From: Planctomycetota bacterium
Lineage (GTDB): Bacteria; Planctomycetota; Brocadiia; Brocadiales; Brocadiaceae
DNA length: 17,214 nt
Reading direction: 5' to 3'
NCBI GenBank assembly: GCA_030837315.1
Contig: JAUPKS010000083.1
Coordinates: forward strand, 1-17,214
This document shows, piece after piece, positions 600-17,214 of the stretch. The notes beneath the pieces were generated by a model, which was not told the DNA's origin, did no database searches, and saw only the letters and a list, made by a program, of their open reading frames with translations. Within the stretch, counting starts at the first letter, position 1, and the number at the start of each line of letters is the position of its first letter. The translations under genes and the position numbers were made by a program.

Positions 600-1014
600 T
601 TTACAGAATAAAAAATGGAGAAGAGATTTAAATTTAAAAGCCTTAATGCCTACTCATCGGATGCATGAATAGCTAATTCCACTAGACTTTGCAGGAAAGT
701 TTTTGACAAGGTAGTAACCGAGTACATCCGTTATGAGCTTGCTTTGTTCAACAAAACTAAGGTTGGTACATCAGGTTCTTCATTTCCCGCTTGGTTATGG
801 ACTATTTATCCTGCAAATATTTAAATAGCCACATCTATCCATGAAAAGAGCTACACCATCTGTGATAGAACCTATTTTTTGTCAGAAACAACCTCTAGAG
901 ATCTACCAGATAAGTTACGATAGCTCAAATAAAAAAAATCTAAACCAGCAGCTAACTTCGAAGAATGAATCAAGTTATCAACGCATTATTATAAGGAAAT
1001 TAATAAAACAAAAG

Positions 1015-1410: not shown

Positions 1411-1425
1411 GTTTCTCTCCCTTAA

Positions 1426-1860: not shown

Positions 1861-1887
1861 TAAATGTATCCTTAAACAGTGAAAATC

Positions 1888-1922
1888 AAAAAGCGCCTTA
1901 CCATTAATATAAGGCGCTTTTT
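1888..1922 (-). terminator. Strong rho-independent-type hairpin (13-bp stem, 9-nt loop) followed on the minus strand by UUUUUGAUUUUC
   Basis: AAAAAGCGCCTTA (1888-1900) pairs perfectly with TAAGGCGCTTTTT (1910-1922). It lies 47 nt downstream of the small Cys-rich ORF stop and 27 nt upstream of the rplM start codon. Confidence 0.65.
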
Positions 1923-1958
1923 GGATTTACAAACCATTAAAATAAAAAGAAGCGATTT

Positions 1959-1988
1959 ATCATACTGAGTTATTTCTTACAGTTGCAA
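1959..1988 (-). promoter_or_regulatory. Candidate sigma70-type promoter TTGCAA-18 nt-TATGAT for rplM-rpsI
   Basis: Read on the minus strand, TTGCAA is at 1988-1983 and TATGAT at 1964-1959. It overlaps the last codons of the small Cys-rich ORF and lies upstream of the 1888-1922 hairpin. Motif match only. Confidence 0.3.
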
Positions 1989-2140
1989 ACCTTGGATTTT
2001 CCTGAGCAATGGCTACAGGGGCATCCTTCACACTCGCAGGCACCAGCGACTGCAGATGTGATAAGCGTTGATACATTTGCTACACCAATACCGAACATAA
2101 GCGTACCAAAAATCATTAATGAGATATATATTTTTCTCAT
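1970..2140 (-). CDS. Small (56 aa) hydrophobic-leader, cysteine-rich peptide: MRKIYISLMIFGTLMFGIGVANVSTLITSAVAGACECEGCPCSHCSGKSKVCNCKK
   Basis: Absent from the ORF track, probably because it is under the size cutoff. ATG at 2140 is preceded by GAGGAG 9 nt upstream. Basic N-terminus, about 30 hydrophobic residues, then 7 Cys in the last 22 residues (CxCxxCxCxxC-x6-CxC). Flanked by a candidate promoter (2249-2277) and a strong terminator (1888-1922). Confidence 0.55.
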   Translation of the reverse strand: MRKIYISLMIFGTLMFGIGVANVSTLITSAVAGACECEGCPCSHCSGKSKVCNCKK

Positions 2141-2248
2141 CTATATCAACTCCTCGTCATAAAACAATGCACTAAAATTAAACTTTAACTATTATCAGCA
2201 AGCTCACTACTAACATTTCTCTATAAAATAATAAACAAGGGTGGCGTA

Positions 2249-2277
2249 AATATATCAAAACATATCATCATTGTCAA
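2249..2277 (-). promoter_or_regulatory. Candidate sigma70-type promoter TTGACA-17 nt-TATATT driving the small Cys-rich ORF
   Basis: Minus strand: TTGACA at 2277-2272 and TATATT at 2254-2249, exact 17-nt spacer, about 100 nt upstream of the ATG at 2140. Confidence 0.35.
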
Positions 2278-2303
2278 TCAGATTTTTATTGTGTAGATTT
2301 TGA

Positions 2304-2332
2304 TTGACATAGTAACACATTATTATTAATAT
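2304..2332 (+). promoter_or_regulatory. Candidate sigma70-type promoter TTGACA-17 nt-TAATAT driving the FabZ-like gene
   Basis: Plus strand: TTGACA at 2304-2309 and TAATAT at 2327-2332, exact 17-nt spacer, about 80 nt upstream of the ATG at 2411. Its -35 is the inverted-repeat partner of the minus-strand -35 at 2272-2277. Confidence 0.4.
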
Positions 2333-2410
2333 GAAACGAAGAACTTCAATGTCATTTAAACAGTAATGTAGATTACTCACTTCTACAAGAAACTCTCTTG
2401 ATATGTTGTT

Positions 2411-2884
2411 ATGCCACAAGACATCCTGATCGATTTAAGTAGCTTGGATTTAAATAAGCCAACTATAGATATTGAGGCTGTTCGTGCCGTAATACCTCAC
2501 CGATATGAGATGGAACAATTGAACGGTATCATAAAATTCGACCCAGAACATAAGGTTATCGTGGGTTATAAAGATGTCTCAAATAGTGAATTTTGGGTGC
2601 GGGGGCACATCCCGGGTCGCCCTTTGATGCCGGGGGTAGTTATGCTCGAAGCCGCTGCACAGCTGTGTACCTATTATTACAAAAAAACCACTTTGGATGA
2701 TCGATTCCTTGGGTTCGGAGGTATTGATAAAGTTAAATTCCGCGGAAAGGTCATACCAGGCGACAAACTCATTCTTATCGCTAAAAACAAAGAGTTGCGT
2801 TCAAGAAGAGCTATCTTTGATACCCAAGGTGTGGTAAATGGTAACCTCGTATTTGAAGGGGTCATTATTGGGATGGTGGTGTGA
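2411..2884 (+). CDS. FabZ/FabA-family hot-dog fold 3-hydroxyacyl-ACP dehydratase paralog (157 aa)
   Basis: IPHRYEMEQL followed by the catalytic His/Glu motif GHIPGRPLMPGVVMLEAAAQL. An in-frame TGA at 2399-2401 fixes the ATG at 2411 as the only start. This is the second FabZ-like gene in the window. Confidence 0.8.
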   Translation: MPQDILIDLSSLDLNKPTIDIEAVRAVIPHRYEMEQLNGIIKFDPEHKVIVGYKDVSNSEFWVRGHIPGRPLMPGVVMLEAAAQLCTYYYKKTTLDDRFLGFGGIDKVKFRGKVIPGDKLILIAKNKELRSRRAIFDTQGVVNGNLVFEGVIIGMVV

Positions 2885-2935
2885 TCGGCGTGTGTGTAAG
2901 AATTAGGTAATTTGTGAGCAGTTCGCGATCCTTAA

Positions 2936-3640
2936 TTAAAGCATATCTTTAATATGCTTGATAGAATAATCAGGTTTGATGTATTTGTGTGGCTCTCTCA
3001 GGTACGCCTCGTAATGCCTTCCATGTTCAAACATTACCGTAGTTATTCCCAAAGACTTACCGGCAGTTAATTCATCATCAATCTTGTCTCCTATGCACAT
3101 AATTTCTTCTGGTTTTAAATTATATCGGCGCATAACTTCTTGAAAACAGCCCTTTTTTATCTGGCTACCATTTCTATCTGCAACGAAAATGTCGTCGAAG
3201 TAACCACCATTTAAACCGAGCACATTGATCTTTTTGCCTTGTATTTCTTTCTCCCCGGAGGTAACAAGGATTAGCTTGTAACCTTGTACCTTAAGTTGTA
3301 TCAGAGTGTCCGTTACGTCTGGAAAGAGGGAAATGTTGGAGATGTCTATATGAATAAATTCTTCCAACAATTCCTTGATATATGAATTTGGAAGATTGTA
3401 AAGCGCTACAATTTTTTCATAAATATCAACAATGGTTCCATACTTTTTCTCAATTTCCATCTGCAGGGTATATGCTTCCTCTTCTGAGCAGTTTATTATC
3501 TTGGCAATATTTTTGGCTACCTGCCTTCGACCCTGTAAAACGAGCGTACCACTACAATCATAAAGTGTATCATCCAAGTCAAAGATGATGGCCTTAATAT
3601 TTTTAGAATCTTTTATCATACCTTTATGCCTTAGAAGCAC
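2936..3640 (-). CDS. HAD-superfamily hydrolase (phosphatase or phosphomutase type, subfamily IA-like)
   Basis: Motif I IFDLDDTLYD (DxDxT), motif II LVTSG, motif IV GDKIDDE. The GTG at 3640 is the longest start; the ATG at 3619 (MIKDSK...) is an alternative. Confidence 0.8.
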   Translation of the reverse strand: MLLRHKGMIKDSKNIKAIIFDLDDTLYDCSGTLVLQGRRQVAKNIAKIINCSEEEAYTLQMEIEKKYGTIVDIYEKIVALYNLPNSYIKELLEEFIHIDISNISLFPDVTDTLIQLKVQGYKLILVTSGEKEIQGKKINVLGLNGGYFDDIFVADRNGSQIKKGCFQEVMRRYNLKPEEIMCIGDKIDDELTAGKSLGITTVMFEHGRHYEAYLREPHKYIKPDYSIKHIKDML

Positions 3641-3718
3641 TGAATAATCAGTTTTTCAGTAATAGGGGGGATGGCGGTAACAAACTAAATGAAATCACGT
3701 GCAATTAAACGTCCACCT

Positions 3719-5416
3719 CTATCGTATATAGGCTTCAGTGACATATCGGCGCATCATGCGATGGGTATTAAAATAATAGGCAACTTTGCCAATAGAATTT
3801 TTCATGATCTTTATCCATTGGCCTCTGTCCTTGTAATACATCGGGATAATAATGTTTTCCAGTTTGTTATATAAATCCTCGGCATCTGTAGTATCATTAA
3901 CGCTTATTAGTGAGGATTCTAGTGGTTTAGGGCCAATAGACCATCCGGTTATTCCCTCCATGTGCCCCTCGATCCACCACCCATCCAAGATACTAAAATT
4001 AACAATACCATTGTGTGCTGCTTTCATGCCACTGGTACCCGATGCCTCCCGCGGTCGCAATGGCGTGTTGAGCCAAATATCTACTCCTGAAACTAATCGT
4101 AAGGCCATTTCCATATTATAATTTTTTAAAAATACGACTTTGATTTTATCGTTAAATATTTTTGTAAAATCAACGATTCTTTTTATGATTTCTTTCCCCG
4201 GGATATCTTTTGGATGTGCCTTTCCTGCATAAATAATCTGAAACGTCCCTTCTTCACTCATTTTTAAAAACCGTTCAAGGTTTGAAAATAGTAAATCTGC
4301 CCTCTTGTAAGAAGTAAATCTCCTGGCAAACCCAATGGTTAACACATCTGGATTTAGCTCTACACCAGCAATCTTTTTTACGTAATCGACTAAGTCGTAT
4401 TTAGCGCGGAGATGTGCCTCCCACAACTCTCCATCTGGAATAATTTCAGAGCGAACAAATAACTCAGGTTCGTTAGCCCAGCCAGGGATATATTTATCGT
4501 ATAATTGTTTAAAACTGTCACATGTCCAAGTAAAAGAATGGACACCATTGGTAATGGCATTAATTTCATAGCCGGGAAACAAATTTTTGGATACTTCACC
4601 GTGCTTTTTGGCAACACCGTTAACATATTTACTCAGATTTAACGCAAGAAGTGTCATATTGAGATAATGTTCCCCGCCAAGCCTTTTCAATAGCTCTAAT
4701 GGAACAATCTCCCCAAGAACTCCCTTTACGAGATCATAGGAAAACCGGTCATGACCAGCCTCGATGGGGGTATGGGTTGTGAATACACACAAGCCTTTCA
4801 CCTTATCAGTATCCCATATCCATCGTTCGTCCCAAACACTTTCAACGTCTCTCTTGTACATCAAGAGCAGTTCGAGTGTCAATAGGCTGGCGTGCCCTTC
4901 GTTCATATGGTACTTTTTGATATGCAATCCAAGAGTATGAAGTATACGCACTCCGCCAATACCAAGTACGATCTCCTGCTTCAGTCGATAATGCACATCA
5001 CCGCCGTACAAAATGGCAGTGATTTCCCGATCTTCTGTTGCATTTTCCGCAACATCAGTGTCGAGATAGAACACATCCACTTCTCCGCCAGTAACGCTTT
5101 TCACCTTATAGCACCACGCCTGAATGTAAACATTGCGTCCTTCTATTTGAACCACAACCTTTTCAGGAAGGCACACCATAAACCTGGATGGATCCCAATC
5201 CACAGAATATTCAATTTGCCTTCCATCACCATCAATATCCTGGCGAAAGTAGCCCTTTTTTGATAATAGGGTAACGGCAACAAGTGGTACTTTAAGATCC
5301 GCACCTGATTTTATAGTGTCTCCTGCCAGGACACCAAGTCCACCACTATAGGTTGGAATATCGTTAGACAAACCAATTTCCATGGAAAAATAGGCAATCT
5401 TTGCTTCGTTATTCAT
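3719..5416 (-). CDS. glgP: Alpha-glucan (glycogen/maltodextrin) phosphorylase, short GT35 form (565 aa)
   Basis: N-terminal AYFSMEIGL...YSGGLGVLAGD and the PLP-lysine region REASGTSGMKAAHNG, both characteristic of the alpha-glucan phosphorylase family. Confidence 0.9.
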   Translation of the reverse strand: MNNEAKIAYFSMEIGLSNDIPTYSGGLGVLAGDTIKSGADLKVPLVAVTLLSKKGYFRQDIDGDGRQIEYSVDWDPSRFMVCLPEKVVVQIEGRNVYIQAWCYKVKSVTGGEVDVFYLDTDVAENATEDREITAILYGGDVHYRLKQEIVLGIGGVRILHTLGLHIKKYHMNEGHASLLTLELLLMYKRDVESVWDERWIWDTDKVKGLCVFTTHTPIEAGHDRFSYDLVKGVLGEIVPLELLKRLGGEHYLNMTLLALNLSKYVNGVAKKHGEVSKNLFPGYEINAITNGVHSFTWTCDSFKQLYDKYIPGWANEPELFVRSEIIPDGELWEAHLRAKYDLVDYVKKIAGVELNPDVLTIGFARRFTSYKRADLLFSNLERFLKMSEEGTFQIIYAGKAHPKDIPGKEIIKRIVDFTKIFNDKIKVVFLKNYNMEMALRLVSGVDIWLNTPLRPREASGTSGMKAAHNGIVNFSILDGWWIEGHMEGITGWSIGPKPLESSLISVNDTTDAEDLYNKLENIIIPMYYKDRGQWIKIMKNSIGKVAYYFNTHRMMRRYVTEAYIR

Positions 5417-5490
5417 TGGTAATTTATAGATTATTCGTGGTGTATTGATTAAATTCGGTTTTCCTAAAACTCCAAAACGTACACTTATAT

Positions 5491-6924
5491 TTACATATGT
5501 ATGGGTCTATCAACCACCGCATGGGCAGCCTCCAGAATAGCCTCAGAAAGAGTAGGGTGAGGAAAAATAGTATTAAGCAATTCGTGAGCCGTTCCTTCCA
5601 AAATAGTAGCAAGCGACATACCCCACATTAATTCACCTACGTTAGGCCCAATAGCGTGCACTCCCAGTATCTCCCCATATTTATCATCCGTAACAATCTT
5701 TATAAATCCATCTTCATATTCACCATCAATAATTGCCTTACTATTTGCAATAAGGGGAAATTTTCCTACCCGTGTTTTGTAATTTCTTTTTTCCGCCTCC
5801 TCCTGAGTAAGTCCCATACTACCTACCTGCGGAAGGCAATACGTTACTCCAGGTATGTTCTGGTAATTTATTGGGGTGGTCTCTTTGCCGGCAATATGAG
5901 AAACGGCAAGCAGACCTTCATTCGATGCCTTATGAGCAAGGAGGGGAGGGCCTGTAATATCACCAATGGCAAAAAGCCCTGCTTTGTCAGTTTCCATAAC
6001 CTCATTGGTTTGAAGATATTTTCCTTTGAAACTTAGTGATAATTTTTCAATTCCAATGTCAGATAACGCAGGCTTTCTGCTTAAGGCGAGAAGTAAATGA
6101 TCGGCTTCTATAAATTCTTTATTTCCGTTTGCGATAGGGGATTGAGGTGCATTATTTTTTCTTTTTATCTCCACACGAACGCCATTATCTATTATGACCT
6201 TTTCTAAAGAGGTGTTTGTCTGGATATCGATACCTCTTTTGTTAAATATTTTACGCAAAGTGGCACTAATTTCTTTATCCTCTGCGGGAAGGACATCCTC
6301 CAAGAGTTCAATAATGGTTACCTTCGTTCCCAAGACATTAAAGAGGTGCGCGAATTCCGTTCCAACAGCACCGCCGCCCGCTATAATAATGGATTTTGGG
6401 ATTTCTTCCCACACTAATATATCGTCACTGGTAAGCACATATTTCCCATCATGAGGAATACTATCGGGAATGAGGGGAACGGAACCCGTAGCCAATATAA
6501 CATTTTTTGCAGTTATTTTGCCAACGTCCGTTCCATTTTTTTTTATTACGACACCCCCCGATGATGTGAGTTCTCCTTCACCTAAAAAAAGTTCTACACC
6601 ATTTTTCTTCAGAAGAAATTGTGTTCCTTGAAATAATCGATCAACTACAGCCTCTTTCCGTCTATGAAACTGGGGATAATTAATACTTACTTTATCAACA
6701 ACAATTCCAAATTCTCTTGCCCTTAGGAACCTCATGTAAAGATCTGATGAATGGAGGAGTACCTTCGTTGGGATACAACCCCAATGCAAACATGTACCGC
6801 CAACCTTGCCCTTTTCAATAAGAGCAGTCCTCATTCCTGACTGGGCGGCTTTTATTGCTGCAACATAACCGCCTGGCCCACCACCAATGATTATAAGATC
6901 AAAGGCAGAGATTCTCTCAGGCAA
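5491..6924 (-). CDS. lpdA: Dihydrolipoyl dehydrogenase (E3 component)
   Basis: FAD fold DLIIIGGGPGGYVAA, redox disulfide GGTCLHWGCIPTK, NAD fold IIAGGGAVGTEF, C-terminal HPHPTLSEA. The only possible start is the TTG at 6924 because the preceding codon is a stop. GGAGG sits 5 nt upstream. Confidence 0.92.
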   Translation of the reverse strand: MPERISAFDLIIIGGGPGGYVAAIKAAQSGMRTALIEKGKVGGTCLHWGCIPTKVLLHSSDLYMRFLRAREFGIVVDKVSINYPQFHRRKEAVVDRLFQGTQFLLKKNGVELFLGEGELTSSGGVVIKKNGTDVGKITAKNVILATGSVPLIPDSIPHDGKYVLTSDDILVWEEIPKSIIIAGGGAVGTEFAHLFNVLGTKVTIIELLEDVLPAEDKEISATLRKIFNKRGIDIQTNTSLEKVIIDNGVRVEIKRKNNAPQSPIANGNKEFIEADHLLLALSRKPALSDIGIEKLSLSFKGKYLQTNEVMETDKAGLFAIGDITGPPLLAHKASNEGLLAVSHIAGKETTPINYQNIPGVTYCLPQVGSMGLTQEEAEKRNYKTRVGKFPLIANSKAIIDGEYEDGFIKIVTDDKYGEILGVHAIGPNVGELMWGMSLATILEGTAHELLNTIFPHPTLSEAILEAAHAVVDRPIHM

Positions 6925-7053
6925 TTATCCCTCCTTTTTCCATGTAAACAGGATAACAAATATAAGTGCAATGGCAATGACCATAATTGCCTTTGGGCTA
7001 ATATCAGGGATAATTGATTTTTCCATAGAAAGGGATAACAATTTGCCTATCAT
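6925..7053 (-). CDS. Small (42 aa) single-pass membrane peptide, MIGKLLSLSMEKSIIPDISPKAIMVIAIALIFVILFTWKKEG, translationally coupled to lpdA
   Basis: Absent from the ORF track. The ATG at 7053 is preceded by AAGGAGGTG (10-nt spacer). It has one hydrophobic segment (AIMVIAIALIFVILF). Its TAA stop (6925-6927) abuts the lpdA TTG start, and its last codons (AAG GAG GGA) form the lpdA SD. Confidence 0.5.
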   Translation of the reverse strand: MIGKLLSLSMEKSIIPDISPKAIMVIAIALIFVILFTWKKEG

Positions 7054-7158
7054 ACTATTTTCACCTCCTTTAGAAATAAAAAATTTACTTACAAAGATCA
7101 ACTACCTAAACGATATCTATCACAACAAGATTTCCACCACACATGAAATTTACAATAT

Positions 7159-7196
7159 AAAGGCACATCAGAATCTATATATTTTGATGTGCCTTT
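7159..7196 (-). terminator. Hairpin terminator candidate closing the six-gene lipid operon
   Basis: A 12-bp perfect stem, AAAGGCACATCA (7159-7170) with TGATGTGCCTTT (7185-7196), and a 14-nt loop. It begins 36 nt downstream of the radical SAM stop. The minus-strand tail is UUUAUAUUGUAAAUUU, U-rich but not a clean U-run. Confidence 0.5.
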
Positions 7197-7232
7197 AAGG
7201 TATCTGTTATCAGGATATATAATTTATTTGCG

Positions 7233-8693
7233 CTATGTAGTGACCGTTTCCATAAGGGGTTTTGAAACAGTTACTGCACTTGATTTATACCAGTCGTTGT
7301 AATAATCACCTGAATCATACAACTCTTTTAAATTCTGTAAGACTTGTTCGAACACTTGTTTCCAATCAGAACCTACCCTGAATGCAAACATTGAATTTCT
7401 CGGATTTTTCGTTGTCTTAATAGAATTTCTGAAACGAGTCCTTAGGTTATCACTTGCGTAAATATGATCATAGATATATTGCATACCTTCAATAAAGTCT
7501 TCCAATGTCATATCTACAAAACGATGAACCACATGTGCCGTATCATAGTATTGCCAATCTTCCGGGTAATTTTTCCTGAATATCCTCTTTTCTGAATCTA
7601 ATCTCGCATAAAGTTGTGTCTTGGGGAATGGGCAGTTAATGCCAAAGGTCAGAATATCAATATTATTCTCCAATATAAAATCGGTCATTCTCTTAAAGGA
7701 ATCTTTGTCATCCCCATCTGCCCCAAACACCACTGACCCCCAAACAACTAAGCCAGCATTATGAATCTTTTGAATACAATCAAAATAACTATCGGTGCCC
7801 AACTTCAGGTTTACCTGCTTATTCATCTTCTTTAAAACAGTTTCGTTGGTAGATTCGATGCCGACAAGCATACCAAAATTGCCACTTTTGGCCATATAAT
7901 CCAGAGTTTCCGGATCCTGAGAAATATTCAACGCTGTGAATCCCAGCCAGTCTTTATGAATCCCACGCTCCACCATTCCCTTGAAAAGATCCCGCGCCCG
8001 CTCGTTTGACTTCTTACCATGGCCATAGAAGTTATCCTCTGCTAACATTAAACCCGTATAATCAGTTGCCGCCATCTCATCGAGCACATCTTCATAAGGT
8101 CTTTCCCTGAATTTCCTCCCTTGGAATGTGGGTACGCTACAGAAATCACAATAATTCGGACATCCCTTGGTTGTAACGATGGAAGAAAATTTATAATTAT
8201 ATTTTTTCTTCATAAGTTCCCGATTGGGATATACCTTTTTCATCAGGCTGAGGGGGGGTAATCCACCCTGGTAGACCTTTTTTAGTTTTCCTTCTTCAAA
8301 ATCTTTTATGACCTGTGGCCATACTTCTTCTGCTTCACCTACAAAAACAGAGTCAACGAAATTTGCAGCTTCTTCAGGCACTACGGATGCATGTATTCCA
8401 CCCATGATTACGGTCATACCCTTTTCCCTGCATGCAGTAGCAATCTTATATGCCCTGGGAGATTGGTAGGTAACAGCGGTAATACATACAAGGTCAACGG
8501 GCTTAAAGGTAATTTCTCCACTATCATCCATTGCTAATTCGAGATTCTCATCGATCACGTCAAATTCCCAATCGCCCGGCGTAAGGGCAGCAACATAAGC
8601 AAGATTCAATGGCATTTGGACGATTACCGTTATACTCTCTTCACCATGCCTGCCAGGCTTATGTGGATTAATCAACATCATTTTCCTTTTCAT
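7233..8693 (-). CDS. B12-binding-domain (class B) radical SAM enzyme, 486 aa
   Basis: The N-terminal roughly 130 aa show a Rossmann-like cobalamin-binding-domain pattern (VDLVCITAVTYQSPRAYKIA...VIMGGIHAS). Radical SAM cluster motif C178-x3-C182-x2-C185 (GCPNYCDFCS). GGAGG lies 10 nt upstream of the ATG, embedded in the last codons of the upstream gene. Confidence 0.85.
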   Translation of the reverse strand: MKRKMMLINPHKPGRHGEESITVIVQMPLNLAYVAALTPGDWEFDVIDENLELAMDDSGEITFKPVDLVCITAVTYQSPRAYKIATACREKGMTVIMGGIHASVVPEEAANFVDSVFVGEAEEVWPQVIKDFEEGKLKKVYQGGLPPLSLMKKVYPNRELMKKKYNYKFSSIVTTKGCPNYCDFCSVPTFQGRKFRERPYEDVLDEMAATDYTGLMLAEDNFYGHGKKSNERARDLFKGMVERGIHKDWLGFTALNISQDPETLDYMAKSGNFGMLVGIESTNETVLKKMNKQVNLKLGTDSYFDCIQKIHNAGLVVWGSVVFGADGDDKDSFKRMTDFILENNIDILTFGINCPFPKTQLYARLDSEKRIFRKNYPEDWQYYDTAHVVHRFVDMTLEDFIEGMQYIYDHIYASDNLRTRFRNSIKTTKNPRNSMFAFRVGSDWKQVFEQVLQNLKELYDSGDYYNDWYKSSAVTVSKPLMETVTT

Positions 8694-8700
8694 AAGTTGT

Positions 8701-10155
8701 TTACCTCCAATTCTCCATAATTAAATTAGCAACACCCCAACCAGAAGAGACTACAGCACAAACTCCAGGGCCTGGTCTTGTCCAATGACCGGTCAAATAC
8801 AGATTGTCAATTGGTGTCTTGGGTGAAAGCCTATTCTCCCATATTTGATCCGCAGTGACCGCCCAACCGTAGGCTGCCCCATTTGTGTTAGACGTATAAC
8901 GCTCCAATGTTTTTGAAGTAGCCGCATCTTTTACTTCAATATGCTTTTTTATGTCAGGAACGTATTCTTCTAATCGATTTATTGTCCTCTGCGTCATACA
9001 TTCTTTAAAAGATTTCCAACACTCATCATCGCTATATTTCCCTTCCTTTGTATAAGCAACAACAGAAATTATTTGTTTATTTGCTGGCGCAAGGGTAGGG
9101 AATATCGTTGTTGGAACCGATACGTACATCCACTCATCTTCGATGGAACTCATATCTGTAGCCGTATGATAAAATCCTCTTTTTAATTTGCTTAAATCTA
9201 TACCTTCACTTACACCCAAGTACAAAAGGAAAAAGGAACAACTTTCCTTCATCTCTTCAAGTTTTTGAAGGAATGGCAAAGGTAGTTTTCCCTGTAGCAA
9301 TTCAAAAAAAGTCCTATACGCATCAATATTTGAGACAATCAATTTTGATGGTATTTCATTGCCGTCTTCTACTTTTACGCCAATAGCGATTTTACCATCA
9401 TATAAGATTTGCTTTACCGCCGATTTTAGCATAATATGCCCGCCAAAATCAATAAATTTCTTAAAAATGGCGTTAGTAAACTCTTGAGTACCACCGGCAG
9501 GGAAAAAGGCGCCGTCTTTGAGATAATTGATCATCATTTGGCACATGCCAATAGCAGAAGCTTGAGCAGGGGGGAGCCCTATGTAACCCCACTGACCGGA
9601 AAGTATCATCTTGAGCTCCTCATTTTTAAAAAAGGCATTCAGCATCTCGCCATACGTCTGATCCTTATATCTATCTATAATTTGGCTTTTCTCATTGTTA
9701 AATGTAGCACGATAAAGCTTTATAAAATTCCGGAAGAAATCCTTTATTTTATCTCTTTCCAGAGGATAACGCTCCTGCAACCGGACGATGTATTCGTCCA
9801 AATCTGCTGGAATTTCAATGCTAAAATGAGGGAAGATCAGATGATCCATTGGGTCAAGAGGATAAAAATCCATTTCTATTCCTAATGTCTTAAAGCAGCG
9901 ACCGACAATACCCCATTTCCCGCAGCCCCCAATATGATGAACTGCCGCATCAAAGTTAAAGCCTTTTCTCTTAAAAGAAGTGCAATAACCACCGGGAATA
10001 GAGTGTTGTTCAAGAATGAGTACCTTTTTTCCCCCTTTGGCAAGAAAAGCAGCACAGACCAAACCTGCTATGCCTGCGCCAATTACAATGACATCATAAT
10101 AAGGATACAAACTATCCTTATTTGTGGATTGAATACATCGGTTGGAAGGCATCAT
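8701..10155 (-). CDS. FAD-dependent oxidoreductase of the phytoene desaturase (CrtI)-like family, 484 aa
   Basis: N-terminal dinucleotide fold YDVIVIGAGIAGLVCAAFLAKGGKKVLILEQ...PGG and a C-terminal LYLTGHWTRPGPGV...SG motif, typical of CrtI-like amine-oxidase-fold enzymes. The start lies 3 nt after the upstream stop. Confidence 0.8.
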   Translation of the reverse strand: MMPSNRCIQSTNKDSLYPYYDVIVIGAGIAGLVCAAFLAKGGKKVLILEQHSIPGGYCTSFKRKGFNFDAAVHHIGGCGKWGIVGRCFKTLGIEMDFYPLDPMDHLIFPHFSIEIPADLDEYIVRLQERYPLERDKIKDFFRNFIKLYRATFNNEKSQIIDRYKDQTYGEMLNAFFKNEELKMILSGQWGYIGLPPAQASAIGMCQMMINYLKDGAFFPAGGTQEFTNAIFKKFIDFGGHIMLKSAVKQILYDGKIAIGVKVEDGNEIPSKLIVSNIDAYRTFFELLQGKLPLPFLQKLEEMKESCSFFLLYLGVSEGIDLSKLKRGFYHTATDMSSIEDEWMYVSVPTTIFPTLAPANKQIISVVAYTKEGKYSDDECWKSFKECMTQRTINRLEEYVPDIKKHIEVKDAATSKTLERYTSNTNGAAYGWAVTADQIWENRLSPKTPIDNLYLTGHWTRPGPGVCAVVSSGWGVANLIMENWR

Positions 10156-10158
10156 GAA

Positions 10159-11403
10159 TTACTGTTTGTATTTTGAAATGATGAGGGATGAATTGTTTCC
10201 CAACCGTGAGAAGGTATTGATAAGGACGTTTTTGACAGGTAAGACCCTTGCGACATTGGCAACATAATCTAAATCACACTCAGGATCGCGCTCCTTATAA
10301 TTGATTGTGGGGGGAATTGTGTTGGTGTTTATGGACATCGAAGCAGCAATTGTTTGCATTGCACCTGAAGCATCATAGCATTCACCGGTCATGGATTTCA
10401 TGGCGGTTATGGGAATAAGATTCGCTCTCATACCAAAAACCTCTTTGATAACTCTGGTTTCCATCGCGTCACCGTAGACACCAGAATAAGCATTGGCAGA
10501 TATATAAGAAATATCATTTAGTGTAAGATTGGCATCCTTGATTGCACTCATGATAGCTCTTTTGCTACCGTCTATCTGATAACCCTTGCTCGTGGCCATT
10601 ATTGGATCAAATGCGGTCCCGTAACCCTTGATCTCTGCATAAATATGGGCATTTCTCTTAAGCGCATCTTCCAAGGTTTCGAGGATGACTAACGCCGATG
10701 CTTCACCAATAACCATCCCATTGCGCCTTTTATCAAACGGTGCGCAAATTTCGAAAGTTCCATCTTTACTTCCTGATAATATTTTGGAATTATGTGCGCC
10801 CCAAAATATGTCATGAGTTAATCCATGCACCCCCCCAGCAACAACAGCCTTTACACGACTCATTCTAAGAAAATCAGAGGCATAGATAATGGCATCAACA
10901 CTACTGGTAACACCATTTGATATAGTAGTACATAGTCCTGTAGCCTTGCAAAAAATAGAGGCGCGACTCGCGGGTGCATTCAGCACGGTATTAGGAAAAT
11001 CCATAGGATTTACATAATTAGGCCCTTCACGTAATGACTGAAAATCAAAGGAACTGATACTATCGATGCTTCCATACGTAGAACCTATAACTATACCTAA
11101 TTCATCTCCACTGTAAGTGTTATTTTCCAAGTTAGCATCTTTGATGGCCAAGACCGTTGCAGAAGATGCGAGGAGGGAGGTTCTATCGATATGGCGGATT
11201 CCTTTTTGTCCAAGATATATCTTGGCGTCGAAATCAGGAATCTCACCGGCATGTTTACTGGTATATTTACTTACATCGAATAAGGTAATAGGTTTAATAC
11301 CCGATACGCCATTGGTTAAATTATTCCAAAAAGTCTCTTTGTTGCCTCCAACGGGCGAGATAACCGAAACACCTGTAATAACAATCCGCGTTTTTTCCAT
11401 CAT
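10159..11403 (-). CDS. Ketosynthase paralog lacking the catalytic triad (KS-beta / chain-length-factor-like), 414 aa
   Basis: Thiolase-fold KS throughout (RIVITGVSVISPVG..., PFDKRRNGMVIGE, C-terminal NTFSRLGNNSSL). Aligned with the neighbouring intact KS, Cys163 becomes Val165 (codon 10909-10911), His296 becomes Asn304 and His333 becomes Glu341. The GAGGT SD favours the second ATG (11400) as the start. Confidence 0.8.
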   Translation of the reverse strand: MMEKTRIVITGVSVISPVGGNKETFWNNLTNGVSGIKPITLFDVSKYTSKHAGEIPDFDAKIYLGQKGIRHIDRTSLLASSATVLAIKDANLENNTYSGDELGIVIGSTYGSIDSISSFDFQSLREGPNYVNPMDFPNTVLNAPASRASIFCKATGLCTTISNGVTSSVDAIIYASDFLRMSRVKAVVAGGVHGLTHDIFWGAHNSKILSGSKDGTFEICAPFDKRRNGMVIGEASALVILETLEDALKRNAHIYAEIKGYGTAFDPIMATSKGYQIDGSKRAIMSAIKDANLTLNDISYISANAYSGVYGDAMETRVIKEVFGMRANLIPITAMKSMTGECYDASGAMQTIAASMSINTNTIPPTINYKERDPECDLDYVANVARVLPVKNVLINTFSRLGNNSSLIISKYKQ

Positions 11404-11455
11404 AAACCTCGTCTCTAAGATACTCGTTCACCGACAATTGCCGAACCATGAAGCT

Positions 11456-12676
11456 TTAATGTGTGAACTTTTTTACAACCAGACAGCTGTTGTTACCACC
11501 AAAGGCATGGGCATTATTCAATGCAATAGTTACCTGCTGTTTTCTCATAACATTTGGCACATAATCCAGATCACATTCCGGATCCGGGGTTTCATAATTA
11601 ATCGTGGGAGGGATAATATCGTTTTGAACTACTAAGGCGCAGGTGATAGCTTCTATGGCACTAGCAGCACCCATAGTATGGCCAATCATTGATTTTATTG
11701 AACTAATTGCAAGATGTTCTGGTTTATTCCCAAACACCTTTTTAATAGAGATCGTTTCTGCTTTGTCATTAGCAGGGGTGCCTGTTCCATGAGCGCTGAT
11801 GTACTGGACGTCTTCTGGTTTTAAATTTGCGCTTTTCAAGGCTTTTTTCATCGCGGATACAACACCTTCTCCGTCGGGATGGGGGATGGTAATATGGTAA
11901 GCATCACAACTAAGACCATAGCCAATAATTTCAGCATAGATATTTGCATTTCTCTTCACTGCGTGATCAAGTGATTCTAAAAGAAGCATGCCTGCACCCT
12001 CACCCACCATCATGCCTTTCCTGTTTTTGTCAAAAGGTTGACATATCTCAGGGGCAATGGCACCGAGCCTGGCAAAACCCGTATAAGCAACTTTTGAAAA
12101 AGGATCAGAACCTCCAGCCATCATCATGTCCACCCGTCCGAACTTAATTAAATCATACGCATATCCGATTGCATAATTACCTGCTGCACAGGCGGTAGGA
12201 ATAATAGTGTTGGGGCCTTTAAAACCAAACTCAATGGCAACATTAGCCGGAATATTATTGCACGGATGCATTAAAAACAAATCAGGGTCTACCTTATCTT
12301 CACCCTCTTTATACCGAATATAATTAACTTTTTCCAGAATTTGTATTTCACCTGCAGTCGTCCCTACAGAAACTCCAATCCTCTCTAAATCAATGTTATT
12401 CAGAATAAGTCCGGCATCATTTAAGGCAAGCTTTGTGGCTGCAATGGCAAATTGTGAAGCTTTGCCAATCTTTTTAAGAACGGCGTTTTTTATATAATCC
12501 GAATAATTAAAGTTTTTTACCTCACATCCCTTATGAACCTTATATCCGGAAGTATCAATGCATGATACTTCATCTACGCCAGATATCCCAGCAATAAGGG
12601 CATTCCAGAATACATCCTTCCCCGACCCAATAGGAGTGATCATTCCCACTCCTGTTATAACTACACGTTTATTCAT
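11456..12676 (-). CDS. fabF: Beta-ketoacyl-ACP synthase II-type ketosynthase with intact Cys-His-His triad, 406 aa
   Basis: Active-site PTACAAG (Cys163), [15 protein letters not shown] (His296), [15 protein letters not shown] (His333) and C-terminal [14 protein letters not shown], the canonical FabF/KAS II motifs. Confidence 0.88.
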
Positions 12677-12689
12677 AGGTATTATTGTA

Positions 12690-13145
12690 TCAACTAGACA
12701 CTAATGTGCTTTTATCTGCAATTCCAAAAGTCAAAGTTGCCTTAGCAACTGCTTTTTCATCAACCTTTACCGATGCCTGAACAATTGCTCCCTTCGATAC
12801 GATCTTTTCAACGCTTATCTCCACAAAGAGTTGATCGCCGGGGAAAACTGGTTTTGTAAACCGCGCATTATTAACTGATGCCAGCAGAAAAACTTCATCT
12901 CTATCTTTTTTAGTGGGGAGACTTTTTTTGAACAGGATGATCGAAGCTTGTGCCATCGCCTCAATAATGAGTACCCCAGGCATAATGGCAAAATCGGGGA
13001 AATGTCCAACAAAGACTGGCTCGTTGCCAGAGACATTTTTTACGCAGACAATTCTTTTTCCCTCTTCAAACTCAATAACTTTATCTATAAATAAAAAAGG
13101 ATATTTTTGAGGAAGAAGAGATCTGATTTCCTCGAAAAACATCAT
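12690..13145 (-). CDS. fabZ: 3-hydroxyacyl-ACP dehydratase
   Basis: 151 aa. [13 protein letters not shown] followed by [21 protein letters not shown], the canonical FabZ His/Glu motif. Confidence 0.9.
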
Positions 13146-13217
13146 CTTATATAGTCCGTCATCTCATTAATCACAAACGTATTACCTTTGAAATTGTCAC
13201 ACTTTCTATTTAACACA

Positions 13218-13487
13218 TTACGATGAAAATTTTCCGCTTTCCGATAGAACAGCCTTTGTTAAACCGATTGTAGCGCTCAATGATGTAATATCAACGAGCT
13301 TTTCTTCGGGAATTTGCACTTTAAATTTCTTTTCAATAAGTGCAAGAATTTCAAGGGCTAAAAGAGAATCTATTTCAAGATCTTTAAAGAAATTCGCATC
13401 TCTTTTATCCCAAATTTCCTTTTCATCTAATTCTGTAACCTCAGCAACTATGGCTGTTACACCTTTTTCAATTTCTTCAGTGTTCAA
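13218..13487 (-). CDS. Dedicated acyl carrier protein (89 aa from the TTG at 13487; the longest ORF extends to the TTG at 13502)
   Basis: Phosphopantetheine attachment motif LEIDSLLALEIL and an acidic helical protein of ACP size. GAGGAGGGG lies inside the longest ORF, 6 nt upstream of the TTG at 13487, so the shorter start is preferred. Confidence 0.85.
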   Translation of the reverse strand: MNTEEIEKGVTAIVAEVTELDEKEIWDKRDANFFKDLEIDSLLALEILALIEKKFKVQIPEEKLVDITSLSATIGLTKAVLSESGKFSS

Positions 13488-13554
13488 AATTCCCCTCCTC
13501 AAAAACAGACAGCGCTAACCATTAATCTGCTATGTCAACTATACTTAGCGGGAC

Positions 13555-13583
13555 ATGGTAGCAGACATAGGTTATATTGTCAA
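13555..13583 (-). promoter_or_regulatory. Candidate sigma70-type promoter TTGACA-17 nt-TACCAT for the ACP-led operon
   Basis: Minus strand: TTGACA at 13583-13578 and TACCAT at 13560-13555, about 55-70 nt upstream of the ACP start. Motif match only. Confidence 0.3.
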
Positions 13584-13770
13584 TAATTTTCTTTAACCAT
13601 TATAGCCAATGTAAATCCTCATTTTCATAAATCCAAGAAAATTTGTTCCCGAAAACAATTTTCGACAACTATTTACTACGTCCGATAATATATATTATGT
13701 TGCAATGAAAAAAAAGAAGTTCCTGAAAATCCTTTCTCGTGTTTAAATTTTATCATAGCATAACGATCCT

Positions 13771-14382
13771 CTATTTCGTCCTTCTCGATGCCTTTTTTTC
13801 TTCTCGTAATTCTTGTCGTCTATATCGAGACAATTCTTTTAATGCCTTATATAGCTGCATTTCTAACATCGTTTCGTATTTAGATAATTCCACAATTCTG
13901 TTTTTGTTTTCAATTATTTTTAAAGCCTTTAATTGTGATAGTTCTTTATCAGTCCTTTTTCGCGTCCGGAAAAATCCCTGATCGTATTCCTGAATGCAAG
14001 ACCTATCATATTCCATAACCAGGTTTTCAATTTTCAAACATCGCTTCAATCGCCAGACACTTGAAACAATGTGATCCACGATAAGCAATTCAATCTCATC
14101 CGATGGTTTTAGCTCACCAGCAAGCCTATTTCTGATTCCATCAAGATCAGACTGTCTTTCCCCATCTAGTAATATTTCATCGCTAAAGATATATTGTTTT
14201 CCAGCATTTTCCAGAGATTTCATAGACTCTGATGGTACCTTAGTTTCTGTATTCTCTGTCTTTGCGAAGCTTACAATCCCGGCTGATTCAATGATGGTGT
14301 CCATTATCTTGTCTACTTTATCTTTGGCAGAAGACTCTCTGTTCTTTCCTCGTAAAACATCTTCCTTTAAGATCGTTGACAT
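13771..14382 (-). CDS. Hypothetical protein, 203 aa, highly charged and predicted helical
   Basis: Strong SD (AAGGAGG, 4-nt spacer) before the ATG at 14382. It contains ELLIVDHIVSSVWRLKRCLKIEN and a C-terminal LSKYETMLEMQLYKALKELSRYRRQ followed by a lysine/arginine-rich tail. No catalytic motif recognised. Confidence 0.7.
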   Translation of the reverse strand: MSTILKEDVLRGKNRESSAKDKVDKIMDTIIESAGIVSFAKTENTETKVPSESMKSLENAGKQYIFSDEILLDGERQSDLDGIRNRLAGELKPSDEIELLIVDHIVSSVWRLKRCLKIENLVMEYDRSCIQEYDQGFFRTRKRTDKELSQLKALKIIENKNRIVELSKYETMLEMQLYKALKELSRYRRQELREEKKASRRTK

Positions 14383-14643
14383 TGATCCTCCTTTCTAATC
14401 CCTAAAATACTTGGTTATATGTGCAGAATAATATCTCATAATCGTTTAGACTATTCAATAAATATTTTAGATGTTTATTAAGTTATTGCTGCATAACCGC
14501 TCTTGGTCATTCCTGAAGCAGCTCAATATATATTAATATTTTGTGTGTAAATATAAATAACGCTTGAGATATGAGTAATATCGAATAAAATTAATTTACA
14601 GGTATTTAGCTCCAGTTTTTTAAAATTTTCGTAAACACGTGAA

Positions 14644-15279
14644 ATGAAAATTAACGAAATATTTAAGAGCATTCAAGGGGAGACGTCTTACGCAGGTTTG
14701 CCTTGCATATTTATACGCATAGCAGGTTGTAATTTACGCTGCAGTTATTGCGATACGATGTATGCCTATGACGATGGGGCGGAAATGACGGTCAATTTAA
14801 TTCTTGAAATTACCGATAACTTCAAATGCAAGTTTGTTTGTGTAACGGGCGGTGAACCTCTGTTGAATAAAGACACGCCTTTATTAATCAGCAAGTTGCT
14901 AGAAAGAAATTATATTGTATTAGTCGAAACAAATGGTAGCTACGATATACGTAAGATACCACAAAAAGCGATTAAAATTATGGATATCAAGTGTCCGGAC
15001 AGTAACATGAGTCATTTGATGGCTTGGGAGAATATTAACTATTTGACAAAATCAGACGAAATAAAATTTGTTTTAAATTCACGAAAAGATTATGACTGGG
15101 CAAAAATGTTAATACATAAATATCAGTTGCCCGATGTTGCCACGGTATTGCTAGGGGCAGTTTTTGGTGCAATCTCCCCAAGGTCGGTTGTCCAATGGAT
15201 TTTGGAGGATAATCTCGATGTGCGCTTTCAACTACAACTCCACAAATATATCTGGGAACCACAAACAAGGGGTGTTTAA
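14644..15279 (+). CDS. queE: 7-carboxy-7-deazaguanine synthase (radical SAM)
   Basis: N-terminal EIFKSIQGETSYAGLPCIFIRIAGCNLRCSYCDT (QGEG-like motif plus CxxxCxxC), followed by GGEPL. The length of 211 aa is typical of QueE. Confidence 0.9.
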   Translation: MKINEIFKSIQGETSYAGLPCIFIRIAGCNLRCSYCDTMYAYDDGAEMTVNLILEITDNFKCKFVCVTGGEPLLNKDTPLLISKLLERNYIVLVETNGSYDIRKIPQKAIKIMDIKCPDSNMSHLMAWENINYLTKSDEIKFVLNSRKDYDWAKMLIHKYQLPDVATVLLGAVFGAISPRSVVQWILEDNLDVRFQLQLHKYIWEPQTRGV

Positions 15280-15283
15280 TAAC

Positions 15284-15955
15284 GTGAAGGATGTTGCTAT
15301 TGTACTCGTTAGTGGTGGTATGGACAGTTGCGTAACCGTTGGTATTGCTAACGCACAATACCAGCTTGCGATGTTACACGTTAATTACGGACAGCGTACA
15401 GAAACACGAGAACTTAAAGCATTCCATGATATTGCAGCATACTACAAGGTTCCTAACGATAGGACACTCATATCTCATGTCGATTATTTAAGTAAAATTG
15501 GTGGATCAAGTTTAACGGACCAGCGCATGGATGTTCAAGATGCGCAGTTCCATAGCAAAGAAATTCCCACCTCGTATGTACCTTTCAGAAACACACTCTT
15601 CTTAACAATTGCCGTTGCGTGGGGAGAAGTTATCGGGGCAAAAAAAATATTTATCGGCGCAGTAGAACAAGACAGCCCTGGTTATCCCGATTGCAAGCCG
15701 ATCTATTATGAAATTTTCAATAAATTAATCAATGTGGGAACAAGGCCTACAACCCACATCAAGGTAGAAACACCGCTTATACGAAAGACTAAATCAGAAA
15801 TCGTAAAAATAGGTATTTCTATGAAAGTTCCATTCCATCTAAGTTGGTCTTGTTACAAGAATACTGACAAAGCATGCGGAATATGTCATAGCTGTTTTCT
15901 GCGGTTAAAAGCCTTTAAGGAATCCGATATTAATGACCCGATTGCTTATGTTTGA
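15284..15955 (+). CDS. queC: 7-cyano-7-deazaguanine (preQ0) synthase
   Basis: PP-loop VLVSGGMDSCV directly after the GTG at 15284, and the C-terminal zinc-cysteine cluster SCYKNTDKACGICHSCFLR. The track ORF start at 15164 overlaps queE by 116 nt. The GTG at 15284 is in frame, lies 4 nt after the queE stop, and gives a typical 223-aa QueC. Confidence 0.9.
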   Translation: MKDVAIVLVSGGMDSCVTVGIANAQYQLAMLHVNYGQRTETRELKAFHDIAAYYKVPNDRTLISHVDYLSKIGGSSLTDQRMDVQDAQFHSKEIPTSYVPFRNTLFLTIAVAWGEVIGAKKIFIGAVEQDSPGYPDCKPIYYEIFNKLINVGTRPTTHIKVETPLIRKTKSEIVKIGISMKVPFHLSWSCYKNTDKACGICHSCFLRLKAFKESDINDPIAYV

Positions 15956-16002
15956 TGGAAACTTACGATCTTGAGATATTTCATAAATTTTAAATTTTAT
16001 AA

Positions 16003-16030
16003 TTGCAAATGTGATTTCACTTTGTATAAT
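16003..16030 (+). promoter_or_regulatory. Candidate sigma70-type promoter TTGCAA-16 nt-TATAAT
   Basis: TTGCAA at 16003-16008 and a consensus TATAAT at 16025-16030 with TG immediately upstream, about 175 nt upstream of the beta-barrel candidate ORF. Motif match only. Confidence 0.3.
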
Positions 16031-16206
16031 TCAGCCTACTATAGGCATATTAAAATATTCGTTTGCTTATACAATACATGCGACTTAGATGGTTTTTTAG
16101 GTTTAGAATTTGCTAATTTGCTCTCTATAATAAAAATGCACTAAAGCTATTGCAGTTAAACGTTCTGGAGTATGACAAGAAATTACAAACCTATTATAGG
16201 ATTACA

Positions 16207-17214
16207 GTGAACAATCTGGTAAGATATTTAAAGACAATATCAACCATATGCCTTTTGGTAGTTGTTTTTACTGCCACCCTTTCAAATGCTTATGCCTTCG
16301 ACGATGACCGCTTAGACCTCACTATTACGAAATTTTTTGATTCCCTTTCTTATAAATACAAGGGATTCGATTTAGGGGTCAAAGAGGTTTCGGTTGGAGA
16401 AACATTTGATGACAACATTAACTTTGATAAAAAGGACAAACAGGAAGACTTCATAACATATGCGGGAATTGTACTAGGTGCACAATATGTAGGCAAAACC
16501 AGGACATTTGAACTAACTGGTAAAATAACTGATCAGATTTTTGCCAAACAGGCTGATCAAAACAATGTCACACAATTTATAAACTTAAATTTTAAAAATG
16601 AGTTTTCAAAACGTGACCGCATCAGCCTAACGAATGTCTTTACACACTTCGAAGCACCAGAATCTTCAGATTCAGATCCTGAGGGAGGTTATTTCTCACA
16701 ACAGTTTGGAAGAACAGGAGGACGATTCGAATTTTTCCGAAACCAGTTTAACACCACCTATTCAAATGATATTTCCAAACAACTTTCTTTCATTGTAAAC
16801 TACGCTAATGAAATAAACGTTTTTTCAGGGACAGACAGGGATAATTCGATTCTACATAAACCGGGTTTGGGCCTGAGTTACATATTTAGTCCCACCGCCA
16901 CTATTTTTTCCTTTTCATACACCTTCACCAGTATACAATTTGAAGATGATACCGATGCCAGAATAAACACAATTGGTCCTGGCATAAAACAATACATTAC
17001 AAAAAAACTTTATTTTAACGGAAGTACGGGAATAGATTTTATCGATTCTTTTGACGATAAAAACCTCACCAAGCCATTCGTTCAGGCATCGTTGACATAT
17101 ATACTAGAAGAAAAAACACGTGCAAGCATTTCGTTTAACAAAAAATATGAAACAAACCCTTACTTTGATGATATCTTTAATAGCTGGCGTACTTCCGTCT
17201 CTCTGACAAGACAA
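16207..17214 (+). CDS. Secreted protein with signal peptide, probable outer-membrane beta-barrel (N-terminal 336 codons; continues beyond the window)
   Basis: Absent from the ORF track because there is no stop inside the window. I translated 16207-17214 codon by codon and found no stop. GTG start with AGGA 5 nt upstream. The signal peptide VNNLVRYLKTISTICLLVVVFTATLSNAYA is followed by FDDD. There are many amphipathic alternating strands rich in aromatic residues (LSFIVNYANEINVF, GLGLSYIFSPTATIFSFSYTFTSIQF, ASLTYILEEKTRASISF). Confidence 0.65.
   Translation, partial: MNNLVRYLKTISTICLLVVVFTATLSNAYAFDDDRLDLTITKFFDSLSYKYKGFDLGVKEVSVGETFDDNINFDKKDKQEDFITYAGIVLGAQYVGKTRTFELTGKITDQIFAKQADQNNVTQFINLNFKNEFSKRDRISLTNVFTHFEAPESSDSDPEGGYFSQQFGRTGGRFEFFRNQFNTTYSNDISKQLSFIVNYANEINVFSGTDRDNSILHKPGLGLSYIFSPTATIFSFSYTFTSIQFEDDTDARINTIGPGIKQYITKKLYFNGSTGIDFIDSFDDKNLTKPFVQASLTYILEEKTRASISFNKKYETNPYFDDIFNSWRTSVSLTRQ

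Follow-up and report, generated by a model that had tools for sequence, protein, structure and literature searches.

What does a ketosynthase do once its catalytic residues are gone? The question is raised by a 17,214-nucleotide stretch of DNA from a Planctomycetota bacterium of the family Brocadiaceae (assembly GCA_030837315.1, contig JAUPKS010000083.1, positions 1 to 17,214; this whole stretch is referred to below as the window), in which an open reading frame (ORF) for a ketosynthase (KS) lacking the entire Cys-His-His triad lies directly beside the gene of an intact KS. Judged from its sequence, this ORF very probably encodes the non-catalytic beta subunit, termed amxFabFmut, of a heterodimeric ketosynthase belonging to Cluster I, the putative ladderane cluster of anammox bacteria. 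How ladderane lipids, whose hallmark is a chain of fused cyclobutane rings, are synthesized has long been unsolved, with Cluster I as the main suspect, and the dead ketosynthase was puzzling from 2009 until 2026, when a preprint on the Kuenenia and Brocadia orthologues (bioRxiv, May 2026, 10.64898/2026.05.19.726425; hereafter the preprint) showed its role as a partner subunit. With the active-site loss known since 2009 and the heterodimer known from the preprint, the finding itself is already known, and the window adds one orthologue and nothing new on the mechanism. New in this analysis are the selection on the gene, the conservation of its tunnel motif, its distance from the chain length factors (CLFs) of Streptomyces, and a wider family of triad-less proteins.

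Loss of the triad and conservation of the subunit

Both KS proteins of the window are covered end to end by the Pfam KS domains, which span residues 5-247 (PF00109) and 255-369 (PF02801) of the triad-less protein, and BLASTP aligned them with 36% identity over 409 amino acids (aa). In this alignment NGVTSS, SANAYSG and TGECYD of the triad-less protein are paired with TACAAG, SAHGTGT and IGHTMG of its neighbor. A MAFFT alignment of the two window proteins with FabF from the annotated genome of E. coli K-12 and 120 orthologues placed Val165, Asn304 and Glu341 on Cys163, His303 and His340 of E. coli FabF (mature numbering). The preliminary description of this DNA, made from the sequence without database searches, had reported the loss as Val165/Asn304/Glu341 from a manual alignment of the two proteins; the residue numbers proved exact by BLASTP, MAFFT and codons, and the manual alignment was upheld, as the profile/multiple alignment put no Cys or His at the catalytic positions. 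It had overlooked the replacement of the gating Phe400 by Arg400, the assignment to the putative ladderane cluster of anammox bacteria and the 2009 date of the observation, and had given no strand. Lys336, Asp312 and Glu315 are kept. The distance from canonical FabF is also reflected in the NCBIfam fabF model TIGR03150, which scores the protein at 333 bits against a cut-off of 493.75.

The loss is shared throughout the orthologues. The Cys is absent in all 118 full-length sequences, and both His residues are absent in all but one. Sequence P0055, considered as a Val-His-His intermediate, was rejected: it is encoded on a 2.5 kb metagenome contig and is a chimera of two paralogues, with the first two thirds matching the triad-less paralogue and the last third matching the intact KS; misassembly of the adjacent genes is the most likely cause.

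Comparison with two related genomes gave ratios of nonsynonymous to synonymous substitution rates (dN/dS) of 0.082 and 0.044 for the triad-less gene and of 0.072 and 0.024 for its catalytic partner, demonstrating strong purifying selection on the former. Since the triad loss is shared by orthologues evolving at dN/dS of 0.04-0.08, it is not the result of chance or of a sequencing error. Among 114 full-length orthologues, the most conserved 15-residue segment is the tunnel arm (residues 137-151), with a conservation of 0.987 against a protein mean of 0.79, followed by the loop bearing Lys336 and Glu341 (0.94-0.96), while the loops of the former Cys, the first His and the gate are average. The tunnel residues Phe136, Thr139 and Val140 are conserved in 46-47 of the 48 orthologues taken from genome loci. 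The positions of the former nucleophile and the first His are variable (V/T/E/I and N/C, respectively), and the Glu at the second-His position is near fixed. These data fit a structural, tunnel-shaping subunit; the variable nucleophile and first-His positions, the conserved tunnel arm and the low dN/dS speak against a decaying duplicate as well as against a second catalyst.

A probable partner subunit and the rival explanations

The loss was first described in Kuenenia by Rattray et al. 2009 (PMC2649909), whose Table 2 lists Kuste3606 as Val163/Asn298/Lys328/Glu333/Arg392. They concluded that Kuste3606 is unable to perform normal chain elongation and proposed that it recruits a pre-made ladderane moiety into fatty-acid synthesis; Javidpour et al. 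2016 later labeled it a non-canonical FabF. In the preprint, KustE3605 and KustE3606 co-purified, neither being active alone, and the heterodimer decarboxylated malonyl-amxACP (the dedicated acyl carrier protein, ACP) to yield acetoacetyl-ACP. Crystal structures were solved at 2.6 Å (heterodimer) and 2.1 Å. The B. fulgida heterodimer has a single working tunnel lined in part by Phe135/Thr138/Val139 of the dead subunit, and the tunnel mutants Val139Gly and Phe135Gly/Val139Gly changed how readily C6, C8 and C16 crosslinking probes reacted relative to one another. The heterodimer reacted best with C6-C8 acyl-ACP probes, the modeled tunnel would hold C12 or C16 chains, and amxACP contacts both subunits. 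The complex was termed KS/CLF-like by its authors.

The triad-less protein of the window is 88% identical over residues 3-413 to chain C, the dead subunit, of the solved heterodimer structures PDB 9s5h/9s5i (9s5h_C, E = 2.4e-245), and its intact neighbor is 93% identical to the active chain B (9s5h_B, E = 8.5e-256); identity to a Kuenenia orthologue is 80%. Kuste3606, Broful02170 of Brocadia fulgida and Scabro02228 of Scalindua brodae are the orthologues known as amxFabFmut, the dead subunit of amxFabFhet. The window protein shares with them the Val/Asn/Glu set and gate Arg of Kuste3606, the tunnel residues, the gene order and the five neighboring genes. It differs from the crystallized amxFabFmut in coming from another Brocadia-like species, with no functional difference apparent. 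The earlier suggestion that the ORF encodes a non-catalytic KS-beta/CLF-like partner of the adjacent intact KS therefore matches the preprint.

By analogy with these 88-93% identical orthologues, the triad-less protein would keep the thiolase fold without the nucleophile or the decarboxylating histidines and would pair with the adjacent amxFabF2 rather than form a homodimer. Its helix-loop-helix arm, carrying Phe136/Thr139/Val140, would wall part of the single working acyl tunnel, and the dedicated ACP would dock partly on this subunit. Activity is expected in the heterodimer only, namely decarboxylation of malonyl-amxACP leading to acetoacetyl-ACP. Together with amxFabZ, the pair may then start chains on amxACP and carry them through the early elongation cycles, with the triad-less subunit tuning the accepted chain lengths, and the conserved Glu341-Lys336 pair may stabilize the disused active-site loop.

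Several points weigh against this reading. The key source is a preprint that is not peer reviewed, elongation past acetoacetyl-ACP was not seen in vitro, the evidence on chain length comes from a non-physiological crosslinking reaction, and the heterodimerization of the window pair is predicted from homology. The preprint further rationalizes pairing by electrostatics, with negative interface motifs in FabF2 and positive ones in the mut subunit, but a crude count of formal charges in these motifs gave -3/+2 for the KS and -3/0 for the mut subunit of the window, and by the same crude count the mut motifs were not more positive than those of the KS in 39 of 42 pairs from the collected loci.

Two details of the preprint differ from the loci or among themselves. 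Its text puts the dead gene "just upstream" of the active one, whereas the window, like each Brocadiales locus among L004-L048 that covers the upstream flank, has the intact KS first and the triad-less gene second, the intact KS being immediately upstream. The second catalytic His is numbered variously as 333, 335 and 355.

The alternative that survives best is an obligate structural partner that folds, stabilizes or activates amxFabF2 and docks amxACP without setting the product chain length, so that the label "chain length factor" would push the analogy too far. In its favor, neither subunit is active alone, no elongation products longer than C4 were obtained, and the modeled tunnel, fitting C12 or C16, is not obviously restrictive. 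The altered relative C6/C8/C16 probe reactivity of Val139Gly and Phe135Gly/Val139Gly speaks against a purely structural partner, as does the rank of the tunnel-lining arm as the most conserved part of the protein, and this explanation is considered unlikely.

Far less probable still is an independent enzyme with different chemistry, such as the recruitment of a pre-made ladderane moiety originally proposed by Rattray et al. 2009. The preprint explicitly rejects the idea. The triad-less subunit is inactive alone, and docking predictions do not place the ACP at the mouth of the dead tunnel, although the active-site pocket and second tunnel persist and a polyethylene glycol molecule occupies that tunnel in the crystal. 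The near invariance of Glu341, Lys336, Asp312 and Glu315 could be read as a sign of such chemistry, but the V/T/E/I and N/C variation at the nucleophile and first-His positions is unlike that of a catalytic residue. A functionless, decaying duplicate of the neighboring KS, which the loss of all three catalytic residues and the gate Phe and the fabF score far under the cut-off might suggest, is refuted by the selection and conservation data, with the ORF intact, dN/dS like that of the catalytic partner, the gene retained beside the KS across all sampled anammox lineages (to as low as 62% identity), and the protein crystallizing as a folded subunit.

The gene cluster and its surroundings

The subunit beta gene is part of a closely packed minus-strand series, established from the ORF list and Pfam/NCBIfam matches, in the order ACP, FabZ, KS, triad-less KS, CrtI-like oxidoreductase and B12-binding radical S-adenosylmethionine (SAM) enzyme (Table 1). 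All four proteins of the fatty-acid-synthesis type have anammox structures as their best PDB matches: besides the 9s5h chains for the KS pair, these are 8ayd and 7qv0_A for FabZ and, for the ACP, 7auf_A, 9s5i_E (the ACP in the ternary complex) and 7qv0_D. The CrtI-like protein reaches 168 bits with NCBIfam crtI_fam, under the cut-off of 238, and its gene is syntenic in all long Brocadiales loci; its start is given as overlapping the amxFabFmut stop by position (8701..10155 versus 10159..11403). The top NCBIfam match of the radical SAM enzyme is TIGR04072 rSAM_ladder_B12, far under the cut-off (88 versus 360 bits); this enzyme is syntenic with 71-96% identity in Brocadiales loci and absent from non-anammox loci.

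Table 1. Genes of the cluster and residues of the triad-less subunit discussed in the text
Feature	Coordinates	Strand	Details
amxFabFmut orthologue (Kuste3606 / Broful02170 type)	10159..11403	-	ATG-to-TAA ORF, 414 aa; Pfam KS N and C domains
amxFabF2 orthologue (Kuste3605 type), catalytic subunit, 406 aa	11456..12676	-	intact Cys163/His296/His333, gate Phe392
amxFabZ orthologue (Kuste3604 type), 3-hydroxyacyl-ACP dehydratase	12690..13145	-	Pfam FabA-like; NCBIfam fabZ above both cut-offs
amxACP orthologue (Kuste3603 type), dedicated acyl carrier protein	13218..13502	-	Pfam PP-binding
CrtI / phytoene-desaturase-like flavin adenine dinucleotide (FAD) oxidoreductase (Kuste3607 type)	8701..10155	-	Pfam Amino_oxidase and NAD_binding_8
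B12-binding radical SAM enzyme (Kuste3608 type)	7233..8693	-	Pfam Radical_SAM and B12-binding
Spacer between the two KS genes, 52 nucleotides (nt)	11404..11455	-	GAGG Shine-Dalgarno-like motif a few bases 5' of ATG
Val165 at FabF nucleophile Cys163	10909..10911	-	codon GTT; orthologues V 86, T 21, E 7, I 6
Asn304 at FabF His303	10492..10494	-	codon AAT; orthologues N 61, C 58, H 1 (from chimera P0055)
Glu341 at FabF His340	10381..10383	-	codon GAA; E in 116/118 orthologues with a residue there
Arg400 at FabF gating Phe400	10204..10206	-	codon CGG
Tunnel-lining F136/T139/V140 in the motif DFPNTV	10984..10998	-	same residues as Phe135/Thr138/Val139 of the preprint

By inference from this arrangement, the two KS genes would be co-transcribed; a terminator scan found no terminator-like hairpin in the spacer between them. 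Promoter and terminator scans were uninformative about the operon boundaries, the hits being at the level of shuffled sequence (25 versus 24.4 and 7 versus 6.4), and no RNA element in the window was matched by Rfam.

A scan of species-representative genomes provided 53 loci for comparison. The six-gene order recurs in every Brocadiales locus long enough to hold all six genes (about 33), and basal Brocadiales, with a triad-less protein of 62% identity carrying Glu/Asn/Asp, retain the complete cluster. The closest long locus, L008 from the Brocadia-like metagenome-assembled genome (MAG) H5_AMX3, shows 89% DNA identity and the same gene order over nearly 14 kb, and in a collection of 5.8 billion sequences the top 120 protein matches to the triad-less KS are all from Brocadiales, the best at 92%. 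Because of the anammox PDB matches, the all-Brocadiales protein matches and this syntenic locus, the window is assigned on sequence grounds to an anammox bacterium as its "Cluster I", the counterpart of Kuenenia kuste3603-3608.

Past the radical SAM gene lie genes for a dihydrolipoyl dehydrogenase, an alpha-glucan phosphorylase and a haloacid dehalogenase (HAD) hydrolase. The first of these (5491-6924, minus strand), next after the radical SAM gene, is bona fide at 509 bits against a cut-off of 409 and holds the same place in most Brocadiaceae loci (62-89% identity); other subunits of 2-oxoacid dehydrogenase or glycine-cleavage complexes are absent from the window. A second FabZ/FabA-like ORF of 157 aa (2411-2884, plus strand) lies about 4.3 kb past the radical SAM gene on the opposite strand, scoring under both NCBIfam fabZ cut-offs (106 versus 155 and 102 versus 113 bits) with a weak ApeI-like match, in a region whose DNA can be aligned with that of three related Brocadia loci. 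A 203-aa ORF (13771-14382, minus strand) without Pfam or NCBIfam match, immediately upstream of the ACP gene on the same strand, is syntenic in Brocadia- and Jettenia-type loci (45-81% identity) and absent from this position in Kuenenia, Scalindua and basal Brocadiales loci. Divergent QueE- and QueC-like genes (14644-15955, plus strand) are located upstream of the cluster. The listed QueC ORF starts from a TTG and shares 116 nt with QueE, which makes a later true start probable. A further stop-free frame (16117-17214, plus strand) runs for 366 codons to the window end and beyond.

Relation to chain length factors and relatives outside anammox bacteria

How close is the subunit to known CLFs? 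Like the classical CLFs of type II polyketide synthases (PKSs), such as actinorhodin ActI-ORF2 (PDB 1tqy_B) and those of Streptomyces plasmids, it has a full KS fold without the Cys and is encoded straight after the active KS. As with those systems, the known orthologue forms an obligate heterodimer in which the dead subunit walls the acyl cavity and which decarboxylates malonyl-ACP for priming. The differences were examined with two annotated Streptomyces KS-alpha/CLF pairs and the aryl-polyene cluster of E. coli CFT073, which were fetched as references. The window protein has Val at the Cys position, whereas the two Streptomyces CLFs carry Gln and Glu (Q/D/R and E/D/R). The KS and CLF genes overlap in Streptomyces, in contrast to the 52-nt gap in the window, and the Streptomyces loci encode a TcmI cyclase and an aromatase in place of FabZ, the CrtI-like oxidoreductase and the radical SAM enzyme, the window having no cyclases. 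The context is thus a reducing cluster resembling fatty-acid synthesis with its own FabZ, unlike that of an aromatic PKS.

The sequence comparisons point the same way. Identity to the Streptomyces CLFs is only 28-30% (157-172 bits), compared with 33% to E. coli FabF (197 bits) and 36% to the partner KS (252 bits). Among PDB entries, the window protein scores 188-266 bits with FabFs (B. subtilis FabF 266), 170 with Iga11, 153 with the actinorhodin KS and 139 with the actinorhodin CLF 1tqy_B; Iga12 falls outside the 60 best PDB matches and therefore under 117 bits. The ishigamide pair Iga11-Iga12 and the aryl-polyene pair ApeO-ApeC are alike in being heterodimeric KSs that act with an ACP, a ketoreductase and a dehydratase on reduced or unsaturated chains. 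According to the preprint, the closest structural neighbor of amxFabF2 is Iga11, and that of the dead subunit is B. subtilis FabF, not a CLF. The aryl-polyene CLF of E. coli CFT073 is 240 aa long compared with 414 aa in the window, without similarity detectable by BLASTP. NCBIfam contains no CLF-specific profile, a bona fide Streptomyces CLF likewise matching only fabF-type models under their cut-off, and a plasmid tblastn search, the source of the two Streptomyces reference pairs, gave only canonical fabF genes as top matches. By sequence, the window protein lies outside every characterized CLF family, though it would work like one.

The preliminary description had further suggested a distinct KS-beta lineage. 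The low identity to Streptomyces CLFs is in line with this idea, but a neighbor-joining tree (203 sequences, 200 bootstraps) placed all 120 triad-less sequences, including the Streptomyces CLFs, in one clade containing no intact KS, with 63% bootstrap support. This tree leaves its internal nodes unresolved and could well be distorted by long-branch attraction, and at such support it neither supports nor excludes an origin independent of classical CLFs.

A second pair of this kind exists within anammox bacteria. A second locus of Candidatus Loosdrechtia aerotolerans (L055, 3979-8204) corresponds to Kuste2803-2805 of Rattray et al. 2009 and is not mentioned in the preprint. As in the window, an intact KS directly precedes a FabF-like protein that lacks the triad and has Glu at the second-His position. 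A B12-binding radical SAM gene lies upstream of the pair. This non-canonical "FabB" of the Kuste2804/Kuste2805 type (Phe/Asn/Glu) is 40% identical to the window protein and differs in its separate locus, its paralogous lineage and the Phe at the Cys position. The second pair may also be a heterodimer.

Relatives outside anammox bacteria were retrieved by an exhaustive search of 1.8 billion representative proteins. The closest ones, at 40-49% identity, are almost all triad-less, with canonical single-domain FabFs appearing only lower in the list, and they either stand alone or form the C-terminal half of proteins of about 820 aa that begin with an intact KS. Of 81 standalone triad-less relatives, 66 have Glu at the second-His position, 78 retain Lys335 and all 81 retain Asp311. 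Of the 136 closest representatives below 1000 aa (from P0121-P0270), 44 contain two KS-like domains, and most of these 44 are about 750-870 aa long. Such two-domain proteins retain Cys-His-His in their first half but not in their second, making them natural fusions of a KS with a dead KS.

A handful of genomic contexts was examined, in MAGs whose taxonomy labels may be wrong. MAGs labeled Nitrospirota, Thermodesulfovibrionales and Syntrophales (L042-L046) encode a 46-47% identical protein with Phe/Cys/Glu, and where the contig is long enough the order is methyltransferase, FabG, dead KS, FabZ and intact KS, continuing in L042 (5710-12571) with an ACP and a CrtI-like oxidoreductase. An Acidobacteria MAG (L049, 6633-12898; 37% identity) features an intact KS, a dead KS (Gly/Ala/Glu), a 3-hydroxy-3-methylglutaryl-coenzyme A reductase-like protein, a short-chain dehydrogenase/reductase and a CrtI-like protein. 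The CrtI-like oxidoreductase accompanies the pair in L042, L044 and L049, and no homologue of the B12-binding radical SAM enzyme was found within the fetched flanks of the non-anammox loci. The presence there of a KS and a triad-less KS with FabZ, FabG and CrtI-like proteins suggests that organisms other than ladderane producers also have the core of the anammox cluster. This wider distribution is partly known already, because Rattray et al. 2009 had reported atypical paralogues from Rhodopirellula and Geobacter as well as synteny with Desulfotalea.

It is conceivable, at somewhat less than even chance, that the dead subunit is not an anammox invention but belongs to an extensive and ancient family of beta subunits derived from FabF, nearly all of them unannotated. 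The signature proposed for this family is a non-Cys residue at the nucleophile position, then a small or polar residue, the kept Lys and Glu at the second-His position, in a protein encoded beside an intact KS or fused behind it.

Outside anammox bacteria, the dead-subunit family offers a modest lead. The modules of KS, dead KS, FabZ and CrtI-like protein lacking the radical SAM enzyme suggest how the ordinary part of the pathway might be told apart from the ladderane-specific one. If the family is real, the core of the cluster would not be "unique to ladderane producers", nor would its dead subunit be a one-off case of a chain length factor in a pathway of the fatty-acid type. The KS/beta pair with FabZ and the CrtI-like oxidoreductase would instead be an older module, possibly for unsaturated acyl chains, inherited by anammox bacteria, and the anammox-specific chemistry would be narrowed to the radical SAM enzyme.

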